Assembly: GCA_050253415.1 (NCBI GenBank)
Contig: JBFWJC010000013.1
Coordinates: 1-20,330 of the forward strand
Source of the DNA: Pedobacter sp.
GTDB lineage: Bacteria > Desulfobacterota > Desulfuromonadia > Desulfuromonadales > Syntrophotaleaceae
DNA length: 20,330 nucleotides
Direction: 5' to 3'
The translations under genes were made by a program, and so were the position numbers. Below, piece after piece: positions 163 to 20,209 of this stretch. Position 1 is the first letter of the stretch, and every line of letters begins with the position of its first letter. The notes under the pieces are model-generated. The model worked only from the letters and a program-made list of their open reading frames with translations, was not told where the DNA came from and did not search any database.

Positions 163-228
163 GTTTACTCCACAAATGTTAGTTCGAATAAAATTGAAAA
201 AATAAATAAACTGACAGAAGAATTAATA

Positions 229-2841: not shown

Positions 2842-3284
2842 CTAGTGGGTACAAAATCCCAGGGCATTTCCCGCCTCTTCTTTCAGCGACGATTCCTGCA
2901 GGATCATTTCGGCCACGTCTGCGGCTGAACCACCCAGTCCGAGCAGATCGGCTTTCTTTTTGGCGAGGGCAAAATCCCCCGGCGTCAGGTTGCGGCAGCG
3001 AAGCAGCCTTTCGGGGGGCTGCTCAGTGAAAAAGTGCTCAAAGGCCATGGCAATACGCACCATATCCAGGTAGCCGAATTTCACCTTGAAGAGAAAGCGC
3101 CGCAGGCTCGCCTGATCCAGGTGAGACATCAGGTTGGTGGTGCAGGCGAAGGGGAGGGGATGACTCTCCATCCAGGTGAGCATCTCGTTGACCTGGCTTA
3201 CCTCCCAGGGGTGGTGGGCGTTTCTGCGGTCGGCGAGCAAGGAGTCGGCCTCGTCGAAGATCAGAAAGAGTCCTTCTTCGCGAG
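2842..3284 (-). pseudogene. 5'-truncated AAA+ ATPase (C-terminal part only)
   Basis: The frame reads REEGLFLIFDEADSLL (Walker B), FACTTN (sensor 1) and LDQASLRRF (Arg finger), and ends ..ALGF. There is no Walker A or start: the frame runs into the duplicated repeat at 3285 and an in-frame TGA. Confidence 0.85.
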
Positions 3285-3339
3285 GCGATTCAAAAAGGTG
3301 TCAGCGATTCAAAAAGGTGTCAGGGCTACACATTTGACA
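3285..3339. repeat. Left end: 19-bp tandem duplication plus 25-bp IR
   Basis: gcgattcaaaaaggtgtca at 3285-3303 and 3304-3322. The IR at 3315-3339 has an internal TGTCA..TGACA dyad. Confidence 0.9.
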
Positions 3340-3361
3340 GGCCTCCCCTCCTTGATAGGCT
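3334..3361 (+). promoter_or_regulatory. Putative sigma70 promoter of the transposase, with -35 inside the left IR
   Basis: TTGACA (3334-3339), 16 bp, TAGGCT (3356-3361) with an extended TG. RBS GGAGGAGG precedes ATG3398. Confidence 0.55.
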
Positions 3362-3397
3362 GGAGAGCATTAACATCCGCTATCGAAGGAGGAGGTC

Positions 3398-4345
3398 ATG
3401 GGAAGACAGCTCAGGATCGAATACCCCGGCGCTTTCTATCATGTCACGGCAAGGGGCAACGAGAGGAAAGATATTTATAAAAGCGAAAAAGACCGCGAGA
3501 AATTTCTATCGTACCTGGAGTCGGCGGTCGTCCGCTACGGCTCGGCGATTCATGCCTACTGCCTGATGAACAACCATTACCACCTGGTGGTGGAGACGCC
3601 GCACGGCAACCTGTCGCAGGTGATGCAGCACATAAACGGTGCCTATACCAACTACTTCAATGCCAAGCGCAAAAGGTCCGGACACCTTTTTCAGGGAAGA
3701 TACACAGCCATACTGGTAGAGGCAGACACCTACGCCCAGGAGCTCTCCCGTTACGTCCACCTGAATCCGACAAGGGTTGGCATCGGGGCTATGCCGGAGG
3801 ACTATCGATGGTCGAGCTATCGCGACTATGTGGGGCTGAGGGACGCGCCCAGCTGGCTGGCCACGACATTCATCCTCGGCTTGTTCGGCACCACGCGTGA
3901 AGCCGCACAGACGAGCTACAGGCAATTCGTGGAAGATGCCTGCGGCATGGATCTCGAAAGCCCCCTTGCCGGGGCCGTCGCCGCAACCATTCTGGGATGC
4001 CGGGAGTTCGTCGCAGAGATTCAGGGTCGGCATGTCGATGTCAGCACCTCTGACCGCAACCTTCCGGCCGTAAGACAACTCGCCAACCGGCCCGCCATTG
4101 ACCAGATCATCGATGCGGCCCGGGAGGCGTTGGGAGAAAAAGAGCGGCTGGCGGCAAAGGCCGCCATGTACCTGTGTCATCGATACAGCGGGGCAAAGCT
4201 CAGGGACATCGGGGAGCGCTTCGGGGTGAAGGAGTCGGCCTTATCCCAGGCGAGCCGGAGATTCGAGATGGCGCTGGGCAGGGATGAGCAACTGCAGAAG
4301 AGGATGAAAAAGCTGATGAAGGAGTTGGGTTTGTCAGATGTGTAG
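3398..4345 (+). CDS. REP-associated-type tyrosine transposase (Y1_Tnp/IS200-like HUH) with C-terminal DnaA-C-like HTH
   Basis: YHVTARGN, AYCLMNNHYH (HUH), GHLFQGRY, RYVHLNP (catalytic Tyr), YRWSSY. C-terminal AMYLCHRYSGAKLRDIGERFG helix-turn-helix. Confidence 0.92.
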   Translation: MGRQLRIEYPGAFYHVTARGNERKDIYKSEKDREKFLSYLESAVVRYGSAIHAYCLMNNHYHLVVETPHGNLSQVMQHINGAYTNYFNAKRKRSGHLFQGRYTAILVEADTYAQELSRYVHLNPTRVGIGAMPEDYRWSSYRDYVGLRDAPSWLATTFILGLFGTTREAAQTSYRQFVEDACGMDLESPLAGAVAATILGCREFVAEIQGRHVDVSTSDRNLPAVRQLANRPAIDQIIDAAREALGEKERLAAKAAMYLCHRYSGAKLRDIGERFGVKESALSQASRRFEMALGRDEQLQKRMKKLMKELGLSDV

Positions 4346-4366
4346 CTCTGACACCTATGACACCTA
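4332..4366. repeat. Right end: 25-bp IR overlapping the stop codon plus 9-bp tandem duplication
   Basis: TGTCAGA-tgtgtagc-TCTGACA hairpin (4332-4353). tgacaccta occurs at 4349-4357 and 4358-4366. Confidence 0.9.
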
Positions 4367-4409
4367 CTACTGAGTAAAATTAAGTATTCATTGTGTGGAG
4401 TGTATTAAA

Positions 4410-4979
4410 ATGAAAAAAAAATATAATATCAAAAATAGAGAAGAATCATTTCGGGCTGCTGCAAGAAAGAATGAAAAATTTATTATCAATCTATTTTTAT
4501 TGTATTTTGTTTTTTCGATATTAATTTATTGGACTAATTTAGGTAATACTGAAGCAGGAAAGATTCTTTCTGGTATTGTTTCAGATATTATACCATCAAT
4601 ATCTCCAACTGCAAATATATCATATGATTATGGGTCGGTAAAATTGATACTTTCTATTGCATGGTTGTATATTTTGCCAGCTTATATTTTAATTATGAAA
4701 AGAATACCATGGAGGATAATTGATTGGAATAAAATAAAAAGCCCATACAAGCTAATGATATTCTCTTCTGTAGCATTTGTAGGGGGGGGGTATGGGTTTG
4801 CAACGTCACATCCAACAGAAAAAAGCGTACATTTTGCGGGCATAATTTTTAAATCTATAAAAGCAAATGCTTTATTGTCATCCATTTGGGGCTTTGTAAT
4901 TTCTTTGTTTTTAATTTTAACAGCAGTATGTATGACTTGTGGTTTGTTGGCAATTCTAAAGTCAAAGCGAATTAATTAA
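4410..4979 (+). CDS. Four-TM membrane protein, putative immunity protein (189 aa)
   Basis: GGAG at 4397-4400 precedes ATG4410. Four hydrophobic segments (FIINLFLLYFVFSILIYW; LILSIAWLYILPAYILIM; LMIFSSVAFVGGGYGFA; LLSSIWGFVISLFLILTAVCMTCGLLAIL). Very AT-rich, 32 bp upstream of the RTX gene. The immunity role is inferred. Confidence 0.8.
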   Translation: MKKKYNIKNREESFRAAARKNEKFIINLFLLYFVFSILIYWTNLGNTEAGKILSGIVSDIIPSISPTANISYDYGSVKLILSIAWLYILPAYILIMKRIPWRIIDWNKIKSPYKLMIFSSVAFVGGGYGFATSHPTEKSVHFAGIIFKSIKANALLSSIWGFVISLFLILTAVCMTCGLLAILKSKRIN

Positions 4980-5011
4980 ATAATAAAAGATATATATAAG
5001 GAGAATTTGTT

Positions 5012-8000
5012 ATGTCTGAAACAACAAGCATCGTTATAAACTCAGATGAAAATCCAACTCCTAATCAAGTAACAATTGAGTCATTTATTCAGGAAGCTAT
5101 ACTTTATGGAGCTACATTTACGTCTGAAATCTTTGCTAAAATATACGAAGGAGCAATTCAAGTAGAGAATCGTGCAACTGTAATTGCAGATGCATTCATG
5201 AAAGATTGTTTGAGATGTGCAGAGAAAGCAAAACTCTACGAAGAAGCAGCGATAAAAAACTTGGACAATAGCAGTGCAAAGCTTTTTAAAAATCTTGCTG
5301 ATTTTTATGATAGTAAAGCTGCCGAGCGTTTTGCAGTCTCTGCAGAAGAATATTTGCGAGCTAATGCAGCTGCATCAAAAGCGGCATTGAGTTCTGTTGG
5401 TGAAATAGCCGGTCCCCTATTTGACGCAGCTTCAATGGTAAAGGGCTGGTGGACAGCATTTGAAGATGGTAATTATGATGAGCTTGGCTCGGCAAGTTCT
5501 GGTGTAGTTGGCTCAGCAGTAGGGGTATTTTTAGGGTCCTATCTTGTTAGTGGATTGGTTTCACTCGGACTTTTAACTGCTGGCGTTGGTTTGTTACCAG
5601 GCGTAATTATTGGTATTGCTGCCGTCGGCTTTGGGTACCTTTTTTCCGATGTTATCTGGCCGGAAGTGTCTGACTTATTTAATGTTTCCCAAACCACGGT
5701 TCAACGCCGCGACCCCCTGACCCTTGACCTCGACGGCGACGGTCTCGAAACGGTCGGCATCGATACCGCCAACCCCATCCTCTTCGACCACGACGGTGAT
5801 GGCATCAAGACCGCCACGGGCTGGATCAAGCCCGACGACGGCTTTCTGGTGCTTGACCGCAACGGCAATGGCACCATCGACAACGGCGCTGAACTCTTCG
5901 GTGATTCCACTCCGCTCTTTGATGCGGAAGGAATCCCCGTCGGCCACGCGGAAGATGGTTTCGCCGCCCTGGCACAGGAAGACACCAACGGCGATGGCGT
6001 CGTTGACGCGCAGGACGCCAACTGGGCAGATCTGCGTGTCTGGCGCGACCTCAACAGCGATGGCGTAAGCCAGGCCGAAGAACTCCACACCCTGGAAGAG
6101 GCCGGTATCGCCGCCATCCACGTCGACAAGACCGAGAACTCCCAACCGCTGGCGAACGGCAACCTGATTGCCGATCTGGGCAGCTTTGTGCGCACGGACG
6201 GTAGCGAGAGCGACCTTGGCGCCGTCACCGCCGAGATGGGTGACATCGATCTGGCGGAAAACACGTTTTACAACGAATTCACCGATTCCATTCCCCTTAC
6301 CGAAGAAGCCCAGACCCTGCCTGACATGAACGGCTCCGGCCAGGTGCGCACCCTGCGTGAAGCGGCCAGCCTGAGTCCTGAACTGGCCGCCCTGCTCACT
6401 CAATATGCCCAAGCCGATACCCGCGCCGGACAACTGGCGCTGCTCGACCAGGTTCTCGCTGCCTGGGGTGAAACATCCGCCTTGGCTGTTACCGGCGACG
6501 GAGCCTACGGCGGCGTGCCGACTACCGTGGCCATTGCCGGCTATAGCCCCGGCAGCGCCGGCTACGATGCCTGGATGACCCGTCTGCAGACCCTTGAGCG
6601 CTTCAACGGCCGTCCTTTCGCGAGCCCGGCGGATGGGGCGGAAAGTGTCTTCATCAATCTCTTCGCTGCGCGCAAGCAGTTTCTTGACCAGGCCTGGGAT
6701 GCCTTGCGCCAGTCCGTCTACGACGGTCTGCTGCTGCAGACGCGTCTCAAGCCCTATCTGGACGCCATCAGCCTGACCGTTAACGACACCGGTCTGCTCC
6801 TTGATTTCACCGCCACCGCCACAGCGTTCCAGGATCGCTATGCCATCGCCCCCGGCGAAGCGGTGCGCGATCTGCTCGACTTGCAACGTATTTCAGGCAC
6901 CGACCTGAACGGCATGGGCTGGGACGGCTACAGCCAGCTGCGAGGGTGGCTGGAAGAAGCGGCAACCGGCAATGATCCGCTGCTCAGCGCCTCTCTGATA
7001 GCCGCCCTGGGTGACTTTGGTTATCCCGGACTGCGAACTGACGGAGACGGCACGACCTCGAACGAGGCGGTGATCGGTGATAACGCCGGAGCGGTCCTTA
7101 ACGGTGGCGGAGGCAACGACCTGTTATTGGGTGGTGAAGGCGACGACACTCTGAGCGGAGGCATTGGCAGCGACATCCTGTATGGCGGCGCCGGTAACGA
7201 CACCTACCGTTTCAATCCGGGTGATGGGGCGGATACGATCATAGAAACGCAGGGCGACACCGGCAGCGACACCCTCGAATTCGGCGCCGGCATCCTGGCC
7301 GGGGACATCAGCATCCTCGTCGATGAAGACAGACTGGTTTTCGCGCATAGCAACGGCCGCGATCGCATTTCCGTTGCCAACTGGTTTCTGAGCCTCGCGG
7401 AAAGCTCCCACCGGCTCGACACGGTGCGCTTTGCCGATGGCAGCAGTTTTGATCTGAATGCGCTTCACATCGGTACGGGCGATGCCGACACGCTGGCGGG
7501 CACCGATTCAAACGACATCCTTCTCGGTAATGCCGGAGACGACACCCTCAGTGGTGGGGAAGGCAACGACTGGTTGGACGGCGGCAGCGGCGCCGACCTG
7601 ATGACGGGTGGCAACGGGGACGACCTTTACGTGGTGGATTCCGGCGCCGACATTGTCAGCGAAGAGGTTGATGGCGGCACGGACACCGTTGACAGCAAGA
7701 TCACCTACACCCTTGGCGAAAACCTGGAAAATCTTCGCCTGGTGGGGACGGCCAATATCAATGGCGCCGGCAACGAACTGGACAACATGATCGCCGGCAA
7801 CAGCGGCAGCAATGTGCTGCAGGGGATGGACGGCAACGATGTCCTCAGCGGCAACGCGGGCAACGACGTTCTGCTGGGCGGCGCTGGCGACGATATTCTG
7901 GACGGTGGCACCGGCAACGATACCCTGGACGGTGGGACCGGGGACGATGCCATGACGGGTGGTGCCGGCAACGACACCTACCTGGTGGACAGCATTGGCG

Positions 8001-11000
8001 ACAGCGTGTCGGAGCTTGCCGGGCAAGGGACCGATACCGTCGTTGCCGACCTAGATTACACCCTGGGCGTCCATGTCGAAAATCTCACCCTCACCGGCGC
8101 CGACGATCTGGAAGGCGTCGGCAACGAACTGAACAACGTGATCACCGGCAACGATGGCGCCAACACTCTGTCCGGTCTGGCCGGCAACGATATCCTTGAC
8201 GGTGGTCAGGGCGCGGATACCCTGCTGGGTGGCACCGGCGATGACACCTACGTGGTGGATAATGCGGGTGACTCTGTCGTGGAAAATGCAAACGAAGGGA
8301 CCGATACCGTCAAGTCCGCCATCACCTATACCCTGACGGACAACGTCGAAAACCTCACGCTGACCGGCACGGCCAACCTCGATGGTACCGGCAATGAACT
8401 GGACAATGTGGTCACCGGCAACGATGGCGCCAACATTCTGTCCGGCCTGGCCGGCAACGATATCCTCGACGGCGGCCAAGGCGCTGATACCCTGCTGGGC
8501 GGCACCGGCGATGACACCTACGTGGTGGATAACGCAGGAGATGTCGTTGCCGAAAACCACGATGAAGGAATCGACACCGTCAAGTCCGGCATTACCTATA
8601 CCCTGACCGACAACGTCGAAAACCTCACGCTGACGGGCGGCGCCGCCATCAATGGTACGGGTAACGACCTGAACAACACCCTCGTGGGCAACGGTGCGAA
8701 CAACGTGCTCGACGGCGGCGCGGGGGCAGATGCCATGGCAGGCGGGGCCGGCAACGATACTTACATCCTCGACGACCTTGGCGACACCGTGACCGAGTAT
8801 GTCGGCCGAGGCATCGATACGGTAGTCAGTCCCTTCGACTATACTCTGGGAGACCATGTCGAGAACCTCACACTCTCCGGCACAGCCATCACCGGTACGG
8901 GTAATTCCCTCAACAACATCATCTCGGGTACAGACGCGGACAATACCCTGACCGGTCTGGACGGTAATGACATCTTGAATGGCGGCGCCGGGGCAGACAC
9001 CCTGGTCGGCGGGCGCGGCAATGACACCTTCGTGGTGGATAACGCGGGGGATCTTACACAGGAACTTGCCGGCGAGGGCGTGGACACCGTGGAAGCCAGT
9101 CTGACCTGGACGCTGGCAGACCATGTCGAGAACCTGACCCTCACGGGTCACGACGCCATCGACGGTACCGGCAATGAACTCGACAATGTCATCATCGGCA
9201 ATGCCGCCGCCAACTCGCTGACGGGACTGGAGGGCGACGACACCCTTGACGGTGGTGCGGATGCCGACGTCATGGCGGGTGGTACGGGTAACGATACGTA
9301 CGTGGTAGACAATGCTGGCGATGTCGTTCTGGAGGATATTGATGCGGGGACTGATACGGTTCGAGCCAGCATTGACTATACCCTGACGGACCATGTCGAG
9401 AACCTGACCCTCACGGGCACAGCCGCCATCGACGGCACGGGCAACGTGCTGGACAACGTCATTATCGGAAACTCGGCTGCGAACATCTTGACGGGACAGG
9501 AGGGCAACGACACCCTGAACGGCGGCGCGGGCGCCGATACGATGATCGGCGGCAGCGGCGACGACATTTATGTCGTCGACAATGTTTATGACAGGGTGCT
9601 GGAAGAAGCGGGTGAGGGGATCGACACCGTACAGTCGAGCGTCAGCCATACCCTGGCAGACCAGGTCGAAAATCTCACTCTCACCGGCACGGCCAATCTC
9701 AGCGGCACCGGTAACGCCCTGGACAACACCCTGGTCGGCAACAGCGGCCACAATACCCTGGACGGCGGCACGGGCATAGATATCCTGGTCGGCGGTGCGG
9801 GGAACGACACTTACCTGGTGGATGACAGCGCGGACGTCGTGACCGAAGAGGCAGGAAGGGGAACGGACAGCGTCCTTGCCTCGACGAGTTACACCCTCTC
9901 CGCCCATGTCGAGAATATGACCCTTGTCGGTGATAGTGACATCAGCGGTACGGGCAATGATTTGAATAACGAACTCACCGGCAACAGCGGAAACAATGTC
10001 CTGCACGGGCTGGACGGCAACGACGTCCTTGTCGGCAATGCGGGGAACGACCTGCTCGACGGCGGCGCCGGTGCGGATTCCATGGCCGGCGGTGAAGGGG
10101 ACGACACCTATGTGGTGGATAGCGCCGGTGACGAGGTGGCTGAGCTGGAGGCGGAAGGCACGGACAGCGTTCGGGCGAGCATAGACTACACTCTTGGCGA
10201 GAATGTCGAGAATCTCGAGCTGACCGGTATCTCGGATATCGACGGCACAGGAAACCTTCTGGACAATTCCATTACGGGCAACAGCGGAGCCAACCGTATC
10301 GACGGTGCCGAGGGAGCAGACACTCTGGCCGGCGGGGCCGGGGACGATACCTACGTCGTTGACAACGCCGCCGACGTGGTGATGGAGCAGGCGAACGAGG
10401 GGATAGATTCCGTTGAAGCCAGTGTCCACTACAGCCTGACGGATAATGTCGAGAACCTCACTCTCACCGGAGAGGAGAATCTGAACGGGACAGGAAATGA
10501 GCTGGCCAATGCCCTGACCGGGAATGGCGGCGATAACCTTCTGGACGGTGGCAGCGGCATCGATACCATGGCGGGCGGTGCCGGCAATGATACTTATGTG
10601 GTAGATGAGACCGCTGATGTGGTCGTGGAGAAGGTCGGCGAGGGCATCGATACCGTGCTCGCTTCAGCCAACTATACCCTGAGCGAGAATGTCGAACATC
10701 TCATTCTGACCGGGAGCGCCGATCTTGTCGGTGTCGGCAACGTTCTGGACAACACCCTCACTGGCAACAGCGGGGTGAATGAACTCCGTGGGGGGGCAGG
10801 CAACGACACCTACATCGTGGACAGCACCGCTGATGTGGTGGTGGAGAGCGCCGGGGAAGGGATGGATACCGTGCTGTCTTCGGCCGACTATATCCTGTCC
10901 GACAACGTGGAGAATCTGACCTTGACCGGGGTGGCGGATCTCGACGGCAGGGGCAACGCCCTGAACAACACGATCATCGGCAACAGCGGCGCCAACCTGA

Positions 11001-14000
11001 TCGACGGTGGCGCTGGCGCCGACTCGATGGCAGGAGGAGCAGGGGACGACACATACATTGTCGATAACGCAAGCGATACGGTGAGCGAAGGGGTCAACGC
11101 CGGCATCGACAGCGTCTTCTCCTCCGTCACCCATGCCCTGTCGGCCAATGTGGAAAACCTGACCCTGACGGGTGAGGTGGCCACCAATGGCACCGGCAAC
11201 TCGCTGAACAATATTCTGGTCGGCAACGAGGCCGATAACCGGCTCTACGGTCTGTCCGGCAACGATGTCCTGAACGGCAACGGCGGCGACGACGTGCTTG
11301 ATGGCGGCTCGGGTGCCGATACGATGGCCGGGGGTGCGGGGGACGATACCTATGTTGTCGACAATACCGGCGACCTGGTGATCGAGAACGCGGAAGAGGG
11401 TACCGATACGGTGCAGTCGAGCGTCAGCTACACCCTGAGTGACAACGTGGAAAACCTGACTCTCACAGGGTACGGCTACATCAGCGGTACCGGCAATGCT
11501 CTGGACAATGTCATCATCGGCAATACGCGCAACAATACTCTTCGCGGTCTTGATGGGAACGATACCCTGATCGGCAATGCCGGCAGCGACACCCTGGACG
11601 GCGGTAGCGGGGCAGACACCATGAGTGGCGGTTCCGGTAACGACACCTATGTAGTGGACGATGCCGGCGACTTGGTGAAGGAACTGTCCGGCCAGGGAAC
11701 CGATCATGTGCGGGCCGGAATCGATTATACCCTGACCGATTATGTGGAGAACCTGACACTTACCGGGACGGCAGACCTGAACGGCACCGGCAACACTCTT
11801 GGCAACGTGATAACCGGCAACACCGGCAACAATGTGCTTGACGGCAAGGCCGGTAACGACACCCTGTACGGCAATGCCGGCAATGATACCCTGATCGGCG
11901 GAGACGGTAGCGACAAGCTGTACGGTCAGGATGGCACGGATCTGCTTTTCGGTGATGGCGGCAATGATACCCTGGATGGCGGCAGTGGTGGGGATTTCAT
12001 GGCCGGTGGAGCTGGTGATGATACCTATGTCGTGGACAATGCGGGCGATGTCGTGACTGAAAACGCGAATGAAGGCACCGATCTTGTCCAATCGTCCATT
12101 ACCTACACCCTGACCGACAACGTGGAGAATTTGACTCTGGCCGGATCCGCGGCCATCAATGGCACGGGCAATGAGTTGAATAACGTGATCCGTGGCAACT
12201 CGGCGGCCAATGTACTCGATGGCATGGGGGGCAACGACAGCCTGTACGGAAACTCCGGCAACGATACGCTGCTGGGCGGAGAGGGGAATGATTATCTTGA
12301 TGGGGGCTATGGCTCTGACGCCATGAGTGGCGGCGCCGGTGATGACACCTATATTGTTGACAACACGGGTGACGCGGTTACCGAACTGGTTGGTGAAGGG
12401 ACCGATACCGTTCGTTCCAGCGTCAGCTACACCCTGACCGCCAATGTAGAGAATCTGACCCTGACCGGAACTTCATCCATCAACGGTACCGGCAATGATC
12501 TGGATAACGTGATTACCGGCAACAATGGGTCCAATGTCCTTTCGGGGCTGGCCGGCAACGACACCCTGATTGGTAATTCCGGCAACGATACCCTGGATGG
12601 CGGCAGCGGAGCAGACAGCATGAGCGGTGGTTCCGGCAATGATACCTATGTTGTGGACGATGCCGGCGACGTGGTGAACGAGTCCTATAATGCGGGTACC
12701 GATCAGGTGAAATCCAGTATCGATTACACCCTGACTGCCAATGTCGAGAACCTCATCCTGACGGGCACGGCGGACATTGATGGTACCGGCAACACCCTGA
12801 ACAACCTAATTACGGGCAACAGCGGCGCCAACACCCTGGACGGCGGCGCGGGCAACGATACGATTTCGGCCGGTGCGGGAGACGATACCCTCATCGGTGG
12901 GGATGGCGATGACAGCCTGTTTGGCAGTGATGGCGCAGATCAGCTGTTTGGCAATAGCGGCAACGACACTCTCGATGGCGGCAGCGGTGTGGATATTTCG
13001 GCTGGTGGCATCGGAGACGATACGTATATCGTTGACGATAGCAGTGACGTCGTTATTGAAAATCTGGACGAGGGCACCGATTTGGTAAAATCCTCCGCTA
13101 CCTACATCCTGAGCGATAATGTCGAGAACCTGACACTGACCGGCACGGAAAATATTGACGGTACCGGAAATGAGCTGGACAACATCGTCACCGGTAACAG
13201 CGGAGCCAACGTTCTGGACGGTCAATCCGGCAATGACGTTCTTTATGGAAATTCCGGGGCAGACAGCCTTTTCGGAGGTGCTGGAAACGATCTGCTCGAC
13301 GGTGGCGCGGACGCTGACGCCATGGCTGGCGGCAGCGGTGACGATGTCTACCTGGTGGATAACACGGGAGATAGGGTGACCGAGAATGCGGACGAGGGAA
13401 TCGACACAGTACAGTCGAGTGTCAGCTACACCTTGACCGACAACGTGGAGAATCTGACCCTGACCGGAACTTCCGCCATCAACGGGACCGGCAATGACCT
13501 GGACAACATGATCACTGGCAACAGCGGGTCCAACGTCCTCTCGGGCCTGGCGGGCAGCGACACCCTGATCGGCAATTCGGGCAACGACATCCTGGATGGC
13601 GGCATCGGCGCCGACGTCATGCAGGGTGGTGCGGGTAACGATATCTACGTGGTTGATAACATTGGCGATATGGTGACCGAGGCGATCAATGCCGGGACCG
13701 ACACGGTGCAGTCGAGCATCGACTACACGCTGAACACCAACGTCGAAAATCTCACCCTGACGGGGACGGCGGATATCCGTGGCACCGGCAACTCCCTGAA
13801 CAACATAATCACGGGCAATTCCGGGGCTAACGTCCTCGATGGCGGGACCGGAGCGGACACGCTTGTGGGAGGTGCCGGCGACGATACATATAGGGTGGAC
13901 CATTCCGGCGACGTCGTCGTTGAGTCGGCCGATAACGGCACTGACACGGTATACTCCAGCGCCAGTTACACCTTGAGCGCCCATATCGAAAACCTGACCT

Positions 14001-17000
14001 TGACGGGAACCGCAGGGATAAGCGGCGCCGGTAACGGGGCGGATAACGTGATTACCGGCAATGCAGGGGACAATGCCCTGTATGGCGACAGTGGAGACGA
14101 TACCCTTTTTGCCGGGGACGGCCAGGATGTCCTGAACGGCGGCGCGGGTGCTGACAGGCTATTCGGCGAGGGAGGCAACGATATCCTCGCTGGCGGCTTG
14201 GGCGCTGACCTTATGGTGGGTGGCGCCGGCGATGACACCTATCTGGTTGATGACGAGGGCGATGTGGTGGTTGAGGCCGCTGGCGAGGGTGTCGACACCG
14301 TTCAGGCGAGTATTGATTACACTCTGGGCGACCATGTCGAGAACCTGATCCTCACCGGTTCAGCGGCTCTCAGCGGAACGGGTGACGCCAACGGAAATAT
14401 CCTCACCGGCAATGCGGGCGACAATGTCCTCTTTGGGCTGGAAGGTGACGATGTCCTCATAGGTAATGATGGCGATGATACTCTCGATGGGGGCTTGGGA
14501 GCCGATCTCATGCAGGGCGGCGCCGGCCATGATACCTATGTGGTGGACGACCTGGGCGATCAGGTTGTCGAAGCGGCCAATGCCGGTATCGACACGGTAC
14601 AGACAGCGCTGAGCTACACACTGGCCGACAATGTAGAAAACCTGGTGCTGATCGGGGATGGCGACGTTACCGGTACCGGTAACGCTCTGGAGAATACGAT
14701 TACTGGTAATGGCGGCGCCAACACTCTGGATGGTGCCTCGGGTGCCGATACCCTGATTGGGGGTGCCGGCGACGACACCTACATTGTCGACCATGCGGGT
14801 GACACGGTGGTGGAGACGGCCGGGGAAGGAACCGACACGGTATTGGCAGGTGTCAGTCACACCCTGTCGGCCCATGTCGAGAACCTGATCCTCACCGGCA
14901 CGGCGGCCATCGACGGCAGCGGCAATGATCTGGACAACCTGGTCACCGGCAACAGTGCCGCCAACAGGCTTGACGGCGGCGGCGGCAATGATCTGCTTGA
15001 CGGTCGTACCGGAGCCGATACGCTGGCCGGTGGCGCTGGAGACGATACCTATCTGGTCGAGGATGCGGGCGACACCGTGGTGGAAGCTGCCGGAGAAGGG
15101 ACCGACACCGTATTGGCAAGCGTCAGTCACACCCTGTCGGCCCATGTCGAGAACCTGATCCTCACCGGCACAACAGCCATTGACGGTGTCGGCAACGATC
15201 TGGACAACCTGGTCTTGGGCAACAGTGCCGCCAATACCTTGTCTGGCGGTGGCGGCAACGACCTGCTCGAAGGAGGCCAGGGGGATGATGTCTTGCTGGG
15301 TGGCGCCGGCGATGACCGCTATGTTTTCCGTCCGGGCGACGGCAGCGATCATATCGTGGACGCCCAGGGGAACAACACGCTGTATGTTGGAGGAGGCCTG
15401 ACCGAATTTGACCTGGAAGCGGACCGGATGGGCAACGATATGTTCGTGCGGGTTATCGGTTCCACCGACAGCTTTGTTCTGGCCGACTGGTTCCTGCAGG
15501 ACGGCGAAGGGCTCAATGCCATGGAGTTCGATGACGGGACGATCCTCGATCGCGCCGGCATCGAATTGCTGATCAATCGGCCGCCAGTGGCAAATACCGA
15601 CAGCATCACGGCCTTCGAGGATGGTGGTGCCGTCACCTTCGTGGCCACAGACCTGTTGGCCAACGACACCGACCCGAACCCGGGTGATGTGTTGAGTGTG
15701 ATCTCTGTCGGTGAATCGACGGTCGGTGCCTCTGTTTCCCTGGCCGATGGCGAAATAGCCTATGACATAGGAAGTCGGTTTCAGGAGCTGCCGGAGGGGG
15801 AAGTCCTGGAGGACCGCTTTAGCTACACGATCAGTGACGACAAAGGCGCCACGGCGACAGGAACGGTAGAAGTCGATATTATCGGGGTCAACGACGCCCC
15901 TGTTGTCGCCCCCGATGTTGCCCATGTTGTGGAGGATGTACTGGTTTCCGCCAGCGGGAACGTGCTCTCCAACGATTCGGATATCGATGCCGGAACCGTC
16001 CTCAGCATCGCCGCACCCGGCACCACAGCAGGATCCTATGGGACTCTTTCCCTGGAAGAGGATGGCAGCTACATCTATACCCTTGACGCCGCTTCTTCGG
16101 CGGTTCAATCCCTGGGACGCGATGCGGTCATGGTGGAGCAGTTTACCTACGCCGCGACCGACGGCATGGTGGAGACCGCTTCGTCCCTGGAAATCCAGGT
16201 CAGCGGAACGAATGATGCGCCCATCCTGATGAAGCCTCTGGAGGACCAGGACTTTACCTTTCACAAACCCTTTTGCTGGCAAATGCCGGCCGACAGTTTT
16301 GTTGACGTGGACCAGGGGGATGCTTTGACCTATACGGCGACTCTGGCTGACGGGTCGCCTTTGCCGGATTGGTTGTCTTTCGATGGGGAAACACAGACCT
16401 TCTCTGGGAGGACACCGAAAGAGGTGGGCTCAATCGATATTCGGGTCACTGCGACGGACAGTGTAGCTGCTACCGGCAGCACGGAAGGCAGCCTGGCCAC
16501 TTCGGACGTTTTTCGTCTTTCCGTCAGCCATGGCAATCAAGGCGTGGGGAACGGGCAAGATGCAGCCCCTCCCGGCCACGGATTCAACTTCAATGATGGC
16601 CCGGGTACTTCTCCCGGAAATCCCGGGGCTAGAAATTGGCCGGAACCTGGCAATGACAGGGAAAAAGAGCTTGAACGCGCCACGAACAACGTCGGTCCGC
16701 AAAAAGAACCTGTCCGCGTGCCGGCGGAAGCGCTCTCTTATCTCAACGTAAACCAACTTGATAAGCACTTCTCGGAGTTTGACCGGAAGTCTGGAAATAG
16801 CCAGAGCGGAAAGGACGTATTCAGTCGCTGGCAGGCCATGAACCGCGCCTTGGCTGAGCAGGCTGCGAATTTCGACAGGGGCGATTGGCAGCATGACAAC
16901 AAGGGCGCCGATATAGCCAATCTCGGAAAAGCCGCAGAGGGGTTCCTGGGATCCACTAGAGCCTTCGGTACGGACAGCTTCACGCTTGCGGGCGGTTCCG

Positions 17001-17056
17001 GTACCACTCTCGATGATTTCAAAGGGTTGAAGGGCGGATTGAAGGCCTTGAGGTAA
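5012..17056 (+). CDS. Giant RTX (hemolysin-type Ca-binding) T1SS substrate: variable N-terminus, FrpC-like self-processing module, RTX repeats, VCBS/cadherin-like domains
   Basis: AGGAG RBS. [55 protein letters not shown] matches the FrpC SPM pattern. Many GGxGxDxL nonamers, GVNDAP/GTNDAP Ig-like domains and [14 protein letters not shown] (CADG/He_PIG-like). Followed by hlyD. Confidence 0.95.
   Translation: [4014 protein letters not shown]
5711..6280 (+). other. Self-processing module (Ca2+-dependent Asp-Pro autocleavage), D234/P235
   Basis: Codon 234 GAC at 5711 is followed by [14 protein letters not shown], as in the Neisseria FrpC D414-P415 cleavage site. End coordinate is approximate. 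Confidence 0.8.
7060..15330 (+). repeat. RTX repeat region: ~27 modules ([24 protein letters not shown]...) separated by variable numbers of GGxGxDxL nonamers
   Basis: About 27 VENL-type motifs counted in the translation. Near-identical 270-bp units at ~8138/8408 and ~14800/15070. Confidence 0.9.
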
Positions 17057-17066
17057 CAATGAGGAT

Positions 17067-17099
17067 GCGGCGGGGTTGCCTGAACCCCGCCGCTCTTTT
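17067..17099 (+). terminator. Intrinsic terminator/attenuator-like hairpin between the RTX gene and hlyD
   Basis: Perfect 11-bp stem GCGGCGGGGTT-gcctg-AACCCCGCCGC followed by TCTTTT. Confidence 0.7.
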
Positions 17100-17133
17100 G
17101 CCTGGATAAAATGATTCTCTGTCTGTTCGAAAG

Positions 17134-18510
17134 ATGGCCATGAACGAATCGCCTCCCAAAATTTCAAAGTTCAGTATCGATGCTGATCCACTCGATTTCT
17201 CTCCACCGCTGGTCCGCCTGCAGGAGTCTCCACCCAACCCGTTGGGACGGAAAGTCTTGTGGACTCTGCTGATTCTGGTTGCCGCCCTCCTGGCCTGGGC
17301 TCTTTTGGGGCGGCTCGACATTGTCGCCGTCGCCGAAGGCAAGTTGGTGCCGCAAAGCTACGTCAAAATTGTGCAACCGGCGGAAGCCGGCATCGTCAAA
17401 GAGATTTTGGTAAGCGAAGGGGAGGCTGTTCGTGCCGGTCAGGTACTGATGCGCATGGATGCCCTGATCACCGAGGCGGATGCTAGGTCCCTTGGGCTGG
17501 AACTGGAACGTAAGCTCATGACGTTGCGTCGGATCGATGCGGAACTTTCCGGAAAGTATTTTGATGTGGCTGCGTCTGATCCTCCTGGTCTTGCCCGCGA
17601 AATCGCGCAACAGTACAGCGCCAACCGAGCGGCTCTGGACGCGGCTCTGGCAGAAGAGCGCTCCCGACTGCTCAAGGCGAAGCATGAACTTTCAGCGGCG
17701 GAGCAGGTGAAACAGAAGCTGGCTGAGACCCTTCCGCATTACCTGAAACAGGAAAAAGCTTTCGAGGAACTCGCCAAAAGCGGTTTTGTTTCCTCGTTGG
17801 AGATCAGCGATAAAAGGCGAGAGCGCATTGAAAAAGAAGAAGATTTGCGAATTCAGGAGCAAGTCATCGAATCAGCGCGGGCAAGTATCGAGCAATCGGA
17901 AAAAAAACTTGTCCAGATTGAGACCGATTATCGGCGAAATCTCCACGTAGAACGTAATGATATTCAGGGTCAGGTCGATAAGCTCACCCAAGAGGTTGCA
18001 AAGCAGTCCCACCGCAATGAACTCATGGAGCTAAAGGCATCACAGGACAGCATCGTCAAAGATATCGCTACCCATACCGCCGGGACAGTCGTGCAACCCG
18101 GCACAGTTCTTCTTACCCTGGTGCCCAAGGAAGAAAAAATGCGTGCCGAGGTTTGGGTCTCCAACGATGACATCGGCTTTGTTCGGCAGGGACAATCCGT
18201 GAAACTCAAGATAGCTGCCTTCCCGTTTCAGAAATATGGGATGATTGAAGGAACCGTCACTCATGTGAGCGCGGATGCGGCAGACGATGCCATGGGAGCG
18301 TCAAACGATCCGAGGGAAAGTGGGCAACCTCTGGTATATCGGGCCCTCGTGGGGCTGAAATCCATGCACCTGGAAACAGACGGGAGACGCTTCCCTCTTA
18401 CGGCCGGCATGCAGACCCATGCGGAAATTCATTTAGGCAGTCGTACGGTGATGGAGTACCTGCTGTCGCCCGTCAGAAAGGCGTGGCACGAGGCGGGTCG
18501 GGAAAGATAG
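17134..18510 (+). CDS. hlyD: HlyD-family type I secretion periplasmic adaptor
   Basis: N-terminal TM, LDIVAVAEGKLVP, VKEILVSEGEAVRAGQVL, a coiled coil, AFPFQKYGMIEG, GMQTHAEIHLGSRTVMEYLLSP, and a terminal GRER. The start could be 17140. Confidence 0.95.
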   Translation: MAMNESPPKISKFSIDADPLDFSPPLVRLQESPPNPLGRKVLWTLLILVAALLAWALLGRLDIVAVAEGKLVPQSYVKIVQPAEAGIVKEILVSEGEAVRAGQVLMRMDALITEADARSLGLELERKLMTLRRIDAELSGKYFDVAASDPPGLAREIAQQYSANRAALDAALAEERSRLLKAKHELSAAEQVKQKLAETLPHYLKQEKAFEELAKSGFVSSLEISDKRRERIEKEEDLRIQEQVIESARASIEQSEKKLVQIETDYRRNLHVERNDIQGQVDKLTQEVAKQSHRNELMELKASQDSIVKDIATHTAGTVVQPGTVLLTLVPKEEKMRAEVWVSNDDIGFVRQGQSVKLKIAAFPFQKYGMIEGTVTHVSADAADDAMGASNDPRESGQPLVYRALVGLKSMHLETDGRRFPLTAGMQTHAEIHLGSRTVMEYLLSPVRKAWHEAGRER

Positions 18511-18517
18511 GCGCTCG

Positions 18518-19027
18518 CTAAGCGCCAATGGCTTCCACCGCTGCAGCCAGCGTGGCCAGCGGCAAAAAGAGGGCGAGTGGATGGTCGGGCAGGGCGACGA
18601 AGCCATACTGCTCATAATATGCGCGGGCGCCCTGGTTCTTCGCATCCACGAAAAAGCCGATGATCCCGATGTTCTCCGCAACGTACAAAGTGCGCCGCAT
18701 GGCATCGACCATCATGAGGCCACCGAATCCTCGGCGCTGGCGATCCCTCGCCACCGCCAATCGAGCCAGTTTGGCAGCAGGCGCCTTGCGCGGGTATTTT
18801 CTTGCGTATTCGGGTGGCAGTTCCACTGCCACGACTTCGCAGCTCGTCAGGGTGAAAAAGCCCAGGATCTCCTCCGGTTCAGCTGAGTCGACCAGGACGA
18901 AGGTGCGCGCGATCCCTTTGTCGTTGTGCTGACGAGCGGTCCTTTTGAGATAGTCGTCCAAGTCCCCCTCGCCGCAGGTAAAGCCTTCCCGGTTGTGTCC
19001 CCGCGAAAGAAGTTCGATGCGAAGCAT
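18518..19027 (-). CDS. GNAT acetyltransferase toxin (AtaT/TacT-like)
   Basis: HNREGFTCG..LDDYLK, PAAKLARLAV..QRRGFGG (acetyl-CoA motif), VDAKN..ARAYYEQYGF. Its ATG abuts the antitoxin stop (TAAATG). Confidence 0.92.
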   Translation of the reverse strand: MLRIELLSRGHNREGFTCGEGDLDDYLKRTARQHNDKGIARTFVLVDSAEPEEILGFFTLTSCEVVAVELPPEYARKYPRKAPAAKLARLAVARDRQRRGFGGLMMVDAMRRTLYVAENIGIIGFFVDAKNQGARAYYEQYGFVALPDHPLALFLPLATLAAAVEAIGA

Positions 19028-19297
19028 TTAGAGTCGCTCCTTATGAGTGCGGAAGGCCGCCAGCAATTTCTCGTTCGGCGCTGGCGGGTTCTCAATCGCG
19101 TCGAAAAACCGTCTTGCTGCTTCCGCGTCCAAGCGAATAAGGCTCTCCTCTTCGATCACTGTCCGCGCTCGATCGAGTGCAGATTGAACCAGAAATTGAT
19201 TCATCGTCGCACCGCACAACTCGGCCGCGCGGGTAAGAGTCTCGTAAACGTGCTCGGGCACTCGTGCTGAAATACGTGTTTCGACTTTTGCAGCCAT
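19028..19297 (-). CDS. DUF1778 ribbon-helix-helix antitoxin (89 aa)
   Basis: GGAGG RBS before ATG19297. RISARV..LTRAAEL.G.TMNQFLVQSALDRA..IRLD...FFDAIENPPAPNEKL is typical of DUF1778. Confidence 0.92.
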   Translation of the reverse strand: MAAKVETRISARVPEHVYETLTRAAELCGATMNQFLVQSALDRARTVIEEESLIRLDAEAARRFFDAIENPPAPNEKLLAAFRTHKERL

Positions 19298-19329
19298 GTC
19301 ATCCTCCATGTATGGGCTAATTTGCTGTA

Positions 19330-19358
19330 AGGTTAACATGGTGGTGCCAAAATGGCAA
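19330..19358 (-). promoter_or_regulatory. TA operon promoter with an overlapping palindromic operator
   Basis: Minus strand TTGCCA, 17 bp, TAACCT (TG-extended). Dyad TGCCA-aaa-TGGCA at 19345-19357 overlaps the -35. Confidence 0.6.
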
Positions 19359-19652
19359 CAAGGTGGGTCTGTTTTGGCGTCGTTCGTTTTCGGCCCCCTC
19401 ATGTCCGAAATGAATCGCCGTAAGCTTAGACACAGAGCCCCATCCTCAGCGCCTAGTTTGGTGGCTTTACGATTACCAGGTTTTGTCCGTTCCAAAGGTC
19501 AATCGTTCGATAGTTTTAAAAATTAGAAAAAAACCAAAAAAATTGAATTTTAGAAAACTAATGTAAAAAGGTAACGCCTAAAATACTTTTAAAATGTTGT
19601 TTTCTGGTATGTTAAGGCGTTTTATCTAATTTTATGTTTTTTGTAAAAATTA

Positions 19653-19737: not shown

Positions 19738-20209
19738 GCGTCTGTGACGTTTTTGTGACGTCACAGTGACAGTAAAAACTCGATTTTGACCCTTGGCTTG
19801 GGTTTTTGGAGATTTTCGGCCAGCCAAAGGTCAGTGAAAAAATGACCCTTGGCTCACTGGATATCTAGAGTGTATGTATTCCGCAAGCTCTCTTGCTCTA
19901 TTTTTTTCCCGCTCGGGATGGCGCTGTGCAGGGATGAGCCATTGCGGGAGAGGGCGGGGAAGCTGATGAGGGAGTTGGGGGTGACAGGTGTGTAGCTCCG
20001 ACACCGATGAGGATTGCAAAGTTTTCTGAGCCGGTGAAATGGGGTTCTTGGGTGAGTATTTTGTTCGCAGAAATGATAACGGTCAGTTGTCGGTGAAAAC
20101 TGTTCGATTTCTTACTGGAGAGAAAAATGGATTGGAATAAAAAAAAGAAACACGCTGATCGCGAGGTTGAATCAGCTCCAGAGTCAAATGATCGTGTGGA
20201 AAACTCTAG

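Follow-up and report, generated by a model that had tools for sequence, protein, structure and literature searches.

The closest described relatives of the locus reported here are the "clip-and-link" RTX proteins FrpC and FrpA of Neisseria meningitidis, with FrpD, and ApxIVA of Actinobacillus pleuropneumoniae, which are type I secretion (T1SS) substrates with a self-processing module (SPM) and its Asp-Pro bond, as found here. As in FrpC/FrpD, the partner gene lies directly upstream. According to the available sections of the literature, the N-termini of FrpA and FrpC are unrelated, which was ascribed to foreign DNA (PMC3034196), and a hypothesis of 2019 regards FrpC as an antibacterial effector and FrpD as its immunity protein (PMC6759196). 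Our locus differs in that the partner is a polytopic membrane protein, whereas FrpD is a beta-rich lipoprotein, in that the payload, which has no sequence match in the PDB, appears to resemble a colicin pore domain, and in that the host is an environmental bacterium. The available sections of the literature on FrpC, FrpD and ApxIVA make no mention of stub arrays, enzyme payloads or ssrA-like ends.

The locus also resembles the CdiA/CdiI, Rhs, and MafB/MafI systems, which combine a conserved carrier and variable toxins with a cognate immunity gene, carry additional cassettes that share a stretch of homology, and bear a boundary motif for self-cleavage (PMC4436062, available sections). However, the polarity is reversed here, with an N-terminal payload, the immunity gene and extra cassettes upstream, and export by T1SS. 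The available text of PMC4436062 defines the polymorphic toxin class by a conserved N-terminus and contains the terms T1SS, RTX, and frp 0 times, as does that of PMC3482391 for T1SS and FrpC. In Vibrio cholerae T6SS arrays, successive insertion likewise displaces the old effector while old immunity genes stay (PMC5361080, available sections), but the secretion system and direction are different, and in our family the old toxin is often left behind as an intact stub of payload and SPM, which in Proteobacteria frequently carries an ssrA-like end. Related cases in the accessible portions of the literature are the antibacterial RTX bacteriocins RzcA/rhizobiocin and XF2407, whose mechanism is described as uncharacterised (PMC3034196), the Xanthomonadales T4SS effector Smlt3024, with homology to the N-termini of 221 RTX proteins (PMC6759196), and RTX repeats that have Min-Wnt toxin domains fused to their N-terminal side (PMC12419801); these are single observations, unlike the broad family described here. 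We found neither a broad family of this reversed polarity nor its stub arrays or tag described in the literature.

Locus layout and compositional step

The window (the whole 20,330-nt stretch of DNA analysed) contains the membrane gene, RTX ORF, and HlyD gene as given in the initial annotation, which our ORF check confirmed (Table 1). The membrane gene starts at ATG 4410, with GTG 4395 as a possible alternative, and RRDPL is encoded at 5705-5719. The RAYT-like element, which occupies the site of hlyB in many relatives, is bounded by 25-nt inverted repeats (3315-3339 and 4332-4356, 92% complementary), and its transposase scored 75.7 bits against NF047646, below the cut-off of 80. As a side observation, the tmRNA tag of the host genome matches Desulfuromonas/Pelobacter.

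Table 1 Features of the locus in window coordinates
Feature	Position	Strand	Description
RAYT/IS200-like transposase	3398-4345, within element 3315..4356	+	PF01797 above cut-off
AT-rich cassette block	4360..5680	+	Membrane gene and payload-coding 5' part of RTX gene
Candidate immunity gene	4410..4979	+	189 aa, 3-4 TM helices, net charge +15
RTX carrier ORF	5012..17056	+	4014 aa
Payload	5012..5713	+	aa 1-234; predicted SPM cleavage product; all-helical; candidate colicin-like pore former
Colicin-aligning stretch	5387..5500	+	aa 126-163; aligns to colicin pore-domain helices and 'TG-W' turn preceding hairpin
Hydrophobic hairpin	5483..5647	+	aa 158-212, 55 residues, uncharged, Gly-rich; predicted binding site for membrane protein
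Crossover zone/linker	5666..5710	+	xDLFxxAxxxxxRR; start of homology among carriers with different payloads
Asp234-Pro235	5711..5716	+	Predicted Ca2+-dependent self-cleavage bond; aligns to FrpC Asp414-Pro415 (PMC7078468, available sections)
SPM	5714..6280	+	aa 235-423; FrpC-type (phmmer)
RTX nonapeptide region	6911..15360	+	84 GxGxDx[hydrophobic] matches, aa 634-3442; PF00353, PF06594
Ig/cadherin-like domains	15575..16483	+	Big_9, Cadherin_4/5, He_PIG (Pfam)
Presumed uncleaved C-terminal secretion signal	Downstream of Ig/cadherin domains, up to 17053	+	Expected from T1SS knowledge (PMC7078468, available sections)
HlyD-type T1SS periplasmic adaptor	17134..18510	+	TIGR01843, 336 bits (cut-off 208.65)
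GNAT gene	18518-19027		Paired with TacA antitoxin

The carrier is an SPM-RTX protein by sequence, since its SPM matched PDB entries 6sjw and 6sjx (phmmer E 1.2e-50 and 2.8e-50), with W271, D298, W344, and D411 corresponding to W451, D478, W519, and D579 of FrpC, and I412 to L580. The Asp-Pro site is thus that of the FrpC SPM, which relates the locus to a studied family, a point missing from the initial annotation.

The membrane gene and the payload-coding part of the RTX gene are compositionally foreign to the rest. The membrane gene has a GC3 of 0.22, and in the RTX gene GC3 rises from 0.27 (codons 1-229) to 0.71 beyond. The GC-rich codons persist as had been claimed, with each block of 200 codons from 201 onwards at 0.60-0.80. 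In 300-nt bins, GC was 0.30-0.46 in the AT-rich block and 0.52-0.67 on either flank, and the left edge lies directly past the right inverted repeat of the RAYT-like element. Among 1863 genome ORFs of at least 300 aa (median GC3 0.63), just 0.4% do not exceed 0.28. The claimed step at the junction was present in the GC/GC3 profile and the change-point test (log-likelihood 70.6; maximum of 200 permutations 10.6), but its near-tied break points at codons 203, 225, 227, and 231 place it at ~5620-5705, slightly broader than the 5695-5710 first proposed. A step so sharp in a small separate contig might suggest an assembly chimera of an AT-rich and a GC-rich organism. However, mis-assembly of the junction is refuted by a 1620-nt contig of an independent study, which matches 4789-6399 without a single difference. 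In addition, a contig of an RNA library spans 5621-5833, the reading frame stays open at this point, and the step has the same direction in 59 of 61 cassettes. We rejected this reading, whose probability is negligible.

Payload exchange among relatives

Comparison of relatives indicates that immunity-payload blocks are swapped at a short linker just upstream of the Asp-Pro bond. The 75 cassettes collected gave 61 non-redundant N-termini in 38 blastp families; these 61 cassettes are not independent samples. In 59 of them the N-terminus has a lower GC3 than the SPM, and N-termini that are unrelated and richer in AT are found on SPMs sharing up to 99% identity. In two groups of six carriers with SPM identities of 90-99%, the N-termini lack blastp similarity, and in near-identical carriers the nucleotide identity drops from 80-100% to the background level at 30-45 nt upstream of the Asp codon. 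Five SPMs group with that of the window (support 100/99; identity 78-83%), and none of these closest carriers shows blastp similarity to its N-terminus; this and the compositional step support the earlier proposal of a cassette joined to a conserved carrier at RRDPL. Conversely, the payload family of the window occurs at 7 separate positions on the 59-row SPM tree, requiring 7 changes, and a single change sufficed in 0 of 200 bootstraps. That the family is exchangeable is very probable.

The Pfam scan covered 60 of the 61 N-termini. Eight exceeded curated cut-offs for antibacterial-type domains (M23 and Lipase_3, two each, glucosaminidase, phage lysozyme, NlpC/P60, and Ntox44), two further lipases fell below the cut-off, two payloads were DUF6973, and approximately 48 of the 60 had no informative Pfam family. 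Partner types follow payload types: a lysozyme-related payload (locus L073) is preceded by a gene for an LprI lysozyme inhibitor, and the upstream gene is polytopic in 10 of 12 cases with hydrophobic payloads and in 7 of 38 otherwise (Fisher p 9e-5). Against such pairing, blastp found homologous upstream genes in only 5 of 28 homologous payload pairs, compared with 5 of 1247 non-homologous pairs.

Candidate function of the payload and its partner

Like colicins A, B, N, and S4 and pyocin S5, the payload has a helical domain, a 'TG-W' turn and then a long hydrophobic hairpin, and like pore-forming colicins it has a small polytopic partner, here predicted to bind the hairpin. Colicin A-type immunity proteins act on the pore-domain hairpin. 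Colicins differ in that their pore domain is C-terminal, behind translocation and receptor domains, and their immunity gene is downstream on the opposite strand; in addition, our payload has no significant Foldseek or Pfam match and its partner no detectable homology to Cbi/Cni. The payload has 14 homologues among relatives at E<=1e-3, 7 of which continue into DPLxLDL. An alignment of this family with 9 colicin pore domains (hhalign) gave a probability of 78.7% (E 1.7e-5, 38 columns) and a score of 41.0, compared with at most 30.5 in 30 block-shuffles and 21.7 for the reversed profile; the window protein by itself gave 1.8%. Colicins A, B, S4, and N were Foldseek ranks 1, 2, 7, and 12 (E 0.32, TM 0.18-0.21) for a structure model with pLDDT 62, and colicin A, pyocin S5, colicin B, and colicin S4 made up 4 of the 5 non-FrpC PDB rows of one homologue (P0007; phmmer E at least 0.079). 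PF01024 matched none of 16 family members, and the ESM features were colicin-like with a recognition of 2202, below the mark of 2300. Each match is weak on its own, but the payload is a candidate for resembling a colicin pore domain, and we lean slightly towards a colicin-like pore former.

The upstream protein, annotated initially as "4-TM", is polytopic, with three segments by hydropathy (21-44, 76-97, and 150-186); the fourth helix (111-133) comes from a low-confidence model alone (pLDDT 54), and "3-4 TM" is the safer description. Its only homologue among 197 candidates was itself, and its ESM look-alikes were mostly unnamed clusters, with a rank 9 cluster that is 62% PF03857 Colicin_im. 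In a search with a profile built from the partners that accompany homologous payloads, it was the best non-member of 53 upstream genes (E 1.2e-4; next 6.6e-3), and a profile comparison of its family with four immunity proteins of the colicin A type gave no similarity (E 0.28). The pair passed the complex prediction test with a score of 0.61, compared with 0.00 for the best of 3 controls (contact agreement between runs at least 86%, partner pLDDT at least 81), with the interface on the hairpin at residues 160-214; of 157 solved pairs 116 attained the mark for this score, as did 2 of 215 mismatched ones, counts which are only approximate with the alignments used here. As the controls may have been soluble proteins, mere packing of hydrophobic helices could also fit the score. 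We call this protein a candidate immunity protein, predicted to bind the payload hairpin.

The mainstream published model for FrpC/FrpD and ApxIVA (PMC5472700, PMC7078468, available sections) would make the locus a variable adhesin or anchor, whose N-terminus, once cleaved, attaches covalently to a surface and is retained there by the upstream protein, with N-terminal variation reflecting binding specificity or antigenic change rather than killing. The Ig/cadherin domains are typical of adhesins and known toxin families are absent from most payloads. However, the partner is an integral membrane protein with predicted hairpin binding rather than a surface lipoprotein, its type follows that of the payload, cell-wall hydrolases, lipases, and Ntox44 occur as payloads in relatives, in one case with the lysozyme-inhibitor gene upstream, and the source organisms are free-living and environmental, all of which makes an adhesin unlikely. 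Equally, an N-terminal hydrophobic pore region is known from classical RTX cytolysins (PMC3034196, available sections) and ClyA was among the top VIA rows (Z 6.0, rmsd 4.5, 108 aligned), although inside the noise range, which would suit a haemolysin-type pore former against eukaryotes such as grazing protists, with the upstream gene as chaperone or self-protection factor. Such a cytolysin is quite improbable: residues 1-700 match no Pfam or NCBIfam RTX-toxin family, the locus has no acyltransferase gene (its GNAT belongs with TacA), cognate immunity genes are usually missing for host-directed toxins (PMC12419801, available sections), and sister payloads attack peptidoglycan. From sequence comparison and structure prediction, we consider an antibacterial toxin-immunity pair the likely function.

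Export, stub arrays and proposed mechanism

Whether this strain secretes the protein today is rather doubtful. The hlyD of the locus is the genome's one tblastn hit for this adaptor at E<=1e-5. The search for an HlyB orthologue in the 100%-complete assembly, a point not considered in the initial annotation, found none, the nearest matches being MsbA-like ABC proteins of 580-621 aa (28-34% identity); HlyB of one relative (L008) is 55-69% identical to that of most others. In the 16 relative loci examined, hlyB is near the cassette, mostly immediately upstream, where the window has the transposase, and the carrier was found in 0 of 6 other genomes of the genus. Given that neither a second cassette nor a recognisable HlyB turned up in this genome, the locus may be silent: a horizontally acquired island that lost hlyB, possibly upon insertion of the RAYT-like element, with no export and perhaps only the immunity gene mattering. 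This reading, which shares its origin with and is compatible with our main explanation, has not quite an even chance, because the 12-kb RTX ORF and hlyD are both intact, identical cassettes occur in sequencing runs from other studies, the assembly is in 18 contigs with 4535 bases withheld, hlyB is known to be unlinked in Neisseria (PMC3034196, available sections), and contigs from an RNA library cover the 5' portion of the membrane gene as well as the junction and carrier, possibly through DNA carry-over. The HlyB of L008 is itself below the TIGR01846 cut-off, so that this cut-off is not decisive by itself.

Tandem SPM cassettes occur in 7 non-redundant relative loci, with up to 5 in one (G007:C28), and another (G067:C14) has the order two stubs, complete gene, hlyB, hlyD. 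Truncated cassettes of relatives often end in a genome-encoded ssrA-like tag, which was terminal in 11 of 54 carrier-homologous stop-ended frames and in 1 of 1459 other frames, with tag patterns defined after the data had been seen; an out-of-sample genome (G963) has a stub, tag and membrane gene, then a payload of the window's family. The window itself has neither tag nor stub. Orphan cassettes had been expected in this genome, but none was found, as six-frame translation of its 18 contigs gave a single motif match; relatives do have them.

Overall, the best explanation is probably a reverse-polarity polymorphic toxin family on FrpC-like RTX carriers, which would have the order (hlyB), immunity gene, payload/Asp-Pro/SPM/RTX/Ig/C-terminal signal, and hlyD. 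By analogy with FrpC and ApxIVA biochemistry, T1SS would export the carrier unfolded via its C-terminus, and outside the cell Ca2+ would fold the SPM, which would cut the Asp-Pro bond and leave the payload with a reactive C-terminal anhydride able to link a nearby lysine. We propose that the freed 234-aa payload would act as an antibacterial membrane toxin and insert its colicin-like hydrophobic hairpin into the cytoplasmic membrane of a competitor, while the upstream membrane protein would shield kin by binding the hairpin in the inner membrane. In the family, an incoming cassette would insert downstream of the old payload within the carrier already present, with the old immunity gene retained and the old toxin left as a signal-less stub; in many Proteobacteria, the ssrA-like tag would route this stub to degradation and double as a source of the ribosome-binding site for the new immunity gene. 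If true, the family would be the mirror image of known swappable-toxin systems, with the payload ahead of a calcium-triggered self-cutting site and the antidote gene upstream.

Exchange of N-termini at the Asp-Pro junction

The window is the complete contig G000:C13. The assembly it belongs to is 4.1 Mb in size and 100% complete, and its tmRNA tag (ADTDVSYALAA) matches Desulfuromonas and Pelobacter. The abrupt compositional step near the Asp-Pro junction that the initial annotation described was confirmed, as GC3 is 0.22 in the membrane-protein gene and 0.27 in RTX codons 1-229 and rises to 0.71 in the remainder of the RTX gene, with a change-point statistic of 70.6 (at most 10.6 in 200 permutations) and near-tied breaks at codons 203-231. 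The median GC3 of the assembly is 0.63, and a value as low as that of the cassette occurs in 0.4% of its 1863 long ORFs; the cassette comprises the gene of the membrane protein (the partner) and the coding part for residues 1-234 (the payload). A contig from another study covers 4789-6399 with unchanged sequence. A promoter scan was uninformative (7 sites, 3.7+/-1.9 expected). Among the neighbouring genes, one with a match to JukB may be an anti-phage defence gene, judging from its sequence.

Features of the window and of loci in relatives
Feature	Position	Remark
Gene	148-774 (+)	no family over cut-off
AT-rich gene	1008-2153 (-)	381 aa; PADLOC JukB match over residues 10-180, E 6e-15
Gene	2353-2805 (+)	no family over cut-off
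Fragment	2842-3240 (-)	weak AAA ATPase match; cut near transposase's left repeat
Direct duplication	3285-3322	19 nt
Transposase element	3315-4356	RAYT/IS200-like
Transposase 3' end and right inverted repeat	4263-4360	
Membrane-protein gene	4410-4979	189 aa; same strand as RTX gene and hlyD
RTX gene	5012-17056	4014 aa; same strand as membrane-protein gene and hlyD
hlyD	17134-18510	same strand as RTX gene
TacA antitoxin (PF08681) and GNAT acetyltransferase toxin pair	18518-19495 (-)	directly downstream of hlyD
Copy of transposase 3' end and right inverted repeat	19913-20010	82% identical to 4263-4360
Tagged truncated carriers in relatives	L004:876, L004:4637, L010:653, L010:2096, L054:288, L056:3929, L059:3632, L060:190, L068:2417, L073:3250, L091:4598, L114:1501	
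Three consecutive AT-rich membrane-protein genes	L012:3221-5387	between hlyB region and payload gene
SPM-RTX gene with tolC, hlyD and hlyB	L103:5912-16120	Methylomonas plasmid NZ_AP019778.1

Relatives were collected with two queries. The carrier, that is, the FrpC-type self-processing module (SPM) plus the RTX remainder, gave 12 loci from GTDB genomes and 47 more from metagenomes. The SPM matched in 38 of the 401 host-phylum genomes, in many of them weakly and in some up to 8 times; seven longer regions took the place of the short loci L015-L043. Leaving out L015-L043, the duplicate L014 and SPM matches not beginning at the module's first residues, we counted 75 cassettes, which yielded 61 non-redundant N-termini at 90% identity in 38 blastp families. 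GC3 of the N-terminus was lower than that of the SPM in 59 of the 61. Two groups of six carriers have SPMs 90-99% identical and no blastp similarity between their N-termini, and nucleotide identity in these near-identical carriers reaches the background level 30-45 nt ahead of the Asp codon, a crossover zone that coincides with the composition step of the window; exceptions with a longer common stretch are the locus pairs L003/L063 (beyond 150 nt) and L060/L083 (about 90 nt). The five SPMs that group with that of the window (support 100/99) are all joined to N-termini unlike the window's. The payload family of the window stands at 7 places on the 59-row SPM tree and clusters no better than when labels are shuffled (a value as low in 126 of 500). 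These results bear out the exchangeable N-terminus proposed in the initial annotation. Exchange at the Asp-Pro junction is thus well supported across the family by these sequence comparisons. The orphan cassettes also envisaged there did not materialize in the host assembly, where the stub motif matched once only; tblastn gave weak matches on its contig C12 (E 0.04-0.07). The locus on a Methylomonas plasmid indicates that SPM-RTX loci can be plasmid-mobile.

The SPM of the window (residues 235-423) starts at D234-P235 and matches the FrpC module over its whole 177 aa (E 1.2e-50). W451, W519, D478 and D579 of FrpC correspond to W271, W344, D298 and D411, so that both tryptophans and two Ca2+-ligand aspartates are kept, and L580 is replaced by Ile. 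Ig/cadherin domains also follow the SPM, and the RTX part adds 84 nonapeptide-like matches in a protein exceeding 1000 aa; on these sequence features, it belongs to the FrpC-like SPM RTX proteins. The SPM of FrpC cuts Asp-Pro in Ca2+ and can join the freed fragment to a lysine (available part of PMC7078468), and, given this chemistry and the position of the SPM, the AT-rich coding part corresponds to the fragment that the SPM would release. As for a LapA/BTLCP retention module at the N-terminus, no NCBIfam or Pfam family was found on residues 1-700, and the payload model is all-helical. In 5 of 61 cassettes (L044 in G007:C28, L045 and L046-L048), Ser-Pro replaces Asp-Pro at the cleavage site, and some carriers may therefore not self-cleave; genome G007 also has ParB-like genes between cassettes, as read by eye from the translation. 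At L003, L005, L050, L058 and L063, 1270-1370 aa stand ahead of the SPM, with an enzyme-like N-terminus and then, where read, RTX repeats and carrier-like sequence, which suggests a cassette fused onto an older carrier.

Payloads and their partners

Among 60 N-termini, Pfam recognised 8 over the cut-off, namely M23 (2), Lipase_3 (2), glucosaminidase, phage lysozyme, NlpC/P60 and Ntox44; 2 lipases lay under the cut-off, 2 were DUF6973, and about 48 of the 60 had no assigned family. The window payload is not among the 8 toxin-type payloads. An LprI lysozyme-inhibitor gene stands upstream of a lysozyme-related payload. In the 50 cassettes with a complete upstream ORF, the upstream protein was polytopic for 10 of 12 hydrophobic payloads vs 7 of 38 others (p 9e-5, with thresholds set once and samples that are not independent), and most of the 38 had an upstream protein with one N-terminal hydrophobic segment, as in a signal peptide or lipoprotein. 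This matching of types follows an immunity logic, in which a membrane toxin would be paired with a membrane antidote and an envelope enzyme with a periplasmic inhibitor. Partners were blastp-homologous in 5 of 28 homologous payload pairs vs 5 of 1247 other pairs.

The window partner had been described as a 4-TM protein; hydropathy upholds three TM segments, and the fourth appears only in a weak model. A homologue search with this protein returned itself only, and the upstream protein of L099 did not match it. Nevertheless, a profile built from the partners of three homologous payloads ranked it first vs the other 50 upstream genes (E 1.2e-4), indicating that the payload family and the partner family travel together. 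ESM features placed it close to a cluster that is 62% PF03857, the family of colicin A-type immunity proteins (match 0.92, 193 shared features); there was no Pfam hit, shallow profiles (4 vs 4) showed no detectable homology to four such immunity proteins (E 0.28), a fold search with the partner model (pLDDT 54) found nothing at E<=0.001, and an ESM structure search gave TM<=0.42. The predicted complex of payload and partner scored 0.61 vs 0.00 for the best control, the controls possibly being soluble proteins. In this test the mark was reached by 116 of 157 solved pairs and by 2 of 215 mismatched ones (rough figures, given the alignments used). At least 86% of contacts agreed between runs, partner pLDDT was at least 81, and the interface was the payload's hairpin. 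The model thus supports payload-partner binding, and we consider that payload and partner probably function as toxin and immunity protein.

Among 1.84 billion representatives, 14 relatives of the payload were found. The payload is helical and includes an uncharged hairpin of 55 residues (158-212). Four methods lean, each weakly, to a colicin pore domain: ESM features (0.90-0.93, with recognition under the mark); Foldseek, which placed four colicins at ranks 1, 2, 7 and 12 (best E 0.32, TM about 0.2); phmmer with the homologue P0007, where 4 of 5 non-FrpC rows were colicin-type (best E 0.079); and hhalign of the payload family with colicin pore domains (78.7% over 38 columns, above 30 block-shuffles). 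The pLDDT of the hairpin region in the payload model is below 50. None of 16 payload-family members matched PF01024 at E<=1, VIA-align listed generic helical bundles and no colicin (best Z 6.4), and a PDB search with a profile (A2) brought up nothing but helical noise, Dps-like matches included. The payload alignment search returned one protein among longer candidates (15% of the query covered) and none among near-length candidates, a plasmid search for homologues gave no match, and 401 genomes in the class of genome G407 gave 2 matches, one being the source of profile rows. PF01024 itself matched twice, weakly, in 400 genomes, and the match examined (L100) was not an RTX locus. Taking these results together, we lean slightly towards a colicin-like pore former. 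The other hydrophobic payload groups, with shallower profiles, reached a probability of at most 8.4% against colicins and 5.6% against the window family and so matched neither; the hydrophobic payloads thus comprise several families.

Tagged truncated units and possible export in this strain

Seven non-redundant loci in relatives hold tandem partner-payload-SPM units, 2-5 each; in G067:C14, two truncated units are followed by a complete gene and then by hlyB and hlyD. In many truncated carriers the last residues are (A)ANDxxWRxAA or a similar sequence, resembling a tmRNA tag such as that of E. coli. The tag closes 11 of 54 carrier-homologous stop-ended frames vs 1 of 1459 frames of other kinds; in the host assembly it closes 2 of 40573. 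Its DNA mostly has GGAG(G) inside, and most tags run into the following reading frame through an ATGA overlap. Since the pattern was formulated after viewing the data, a fresh test was made on 301 genomes, of which 3 matched, one already known, with 0 control matches. Genome G963 showed a payload-SPM stub (a unit cut short of the secretion signal), the tag, a membrane gene and then a payload of the window family (E 2e-9), and G1057 a carrier-like remnant recognised by motif only. The tagged frame of L113 has the carrier-like LERFNG motif and no blastx match. Among the 43 untagged frames, several metagenome stop-ended carriers stay GC-rich past the stop and probably reflect frameshifts or errors; another two pairs are complete short genes. 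The window has neither stub nor tag. We infer that cassettes would turn over by insertion with displacement, and that the displaced toxin would be tagged for degradation. Insertion with displacement recalls the Vibrio T6SS (available part of PMC5361080), whereas the SPM-RTX arrangement is mirrored. The row of membrane-protein genes in L012 resembles an array of retained immunity genes.

In relatives, hlyB is mostly just upstream of the partner gene, where the window has the RAYT-like transposase between 25-nt inverted repeats; with the second copy of its 3' end, element remnants lie on both sides of the RTX-hlyD-TA region. RAYT as a dedicated exchange enzyme was set aside as a lead: in relatives, similar transposases are within 3 kb upstream in 5 of 33 cassettes with enough flank, with no common element DNA. 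HlyD adjoins the RTX gene, and the assembly has 17 TolC-family (PF02321) matches, none shown cognate. No orthologue of the HlyB-type ABC transporter was found in the assembly, which has gaps: its three PF00664 genes (580-621 aa) are 28-34% identical to relatives' HlyB, and its best TIGR01846 score is 375.6 vs 581.4 for the HlyB of L008. A search of 6 other genomes of the genus gave no match to the carrier. Contigs of an RNA library that cover the junction, the carrier and a portion of the partner gene give only a weak hint that the locus works in this strain. The locus could be a remnant that is not exported; alternatively, hlyB may sit inside an assembly gap. We hold secretion in this strain to be somewhat less likely than not.

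A proposed inverted polymorphic toxin arrangement

The 61 N-termini in 38 families on SPM carriers agree with the definition of polymorphic toxins as one carrier with many unrelated variable domains, recognised toxin domains among them, and extra cassettes without the trafficking module occur in relatives and are absent from the host assembly. However, classical systems have a C-terminal toxin and downstream immunity (available part of PMC4436062), and all SPM-RTX cassettes examined are reversed, which makes them a variant rather than a member as defined there. The locus would work like a polymorphic toxin system, although its toxin would not be C-terminal.

Parts of this picture are already in print, as far as the available parts of these sources go: the SPM chemistry (PMC7078468), unrelated N-termini of FrpA and FrpC and RTX bacteriocins of unknown mechanism (PMC3034196), an antibacterial T4SS effector homologous to RTX N-termini and a one-line hypothesis of FrpC as toxin and FrpD as immunity protein (both PMC6759196), Min-Wnt domains fused to RTX repeats (PMC12419801), and the lack of attenuation of FrpC mutants in animal models (PMC5472700). 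The full-text literature searched, main texts with few subscription journals, gave no family-level account of SPM-RTX proteins as polymorphic toxins and described neither stubs in tandem arrays nor ssrA-like ends nor a payload of colicin type. We give an even chance to the general reading that all SPM-RTX proteins, including FrpC-like ones, are widespread T1SS polymorphic antibacterial toxins of inverted architecture, in which the SPM frees the payload and may pin it covalently to its target, inserting cassettes displace old ones, a dual-use sequence at the 5' end of the new cassette gives the displaced toxin an ssrA-like degron and starts the new immunity gene, and the roughly 48 unassigned payloads, including the colicin-like one of the window, would be new toxin domains with new immunity proteins.

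The function of "clip-and-link" RTX proteins is a two-decade-old question, to which this locus and its relatives add the comparative evidence that had been lacking: a fixed linker as the site of exchange, payloads that are enzymes, partners of matching type and cassette arrays. The idea itself has been floated before; what makes it directly testable is its breadth, together with partner matching and tagged stubs, and payload-partner units are simple pairs for tests in E. coli. If true, T1SS would stand as a polymorphic-toxin carrier alongside T5SS, T6SS and T7SS, an Asp-Pro SPM plus its upstream gene would become a rule by which to find antibacterial domains and immunity proteins that are new, and tagged stubs would be a route to disarm a displaced toxin while its immunity is kept.
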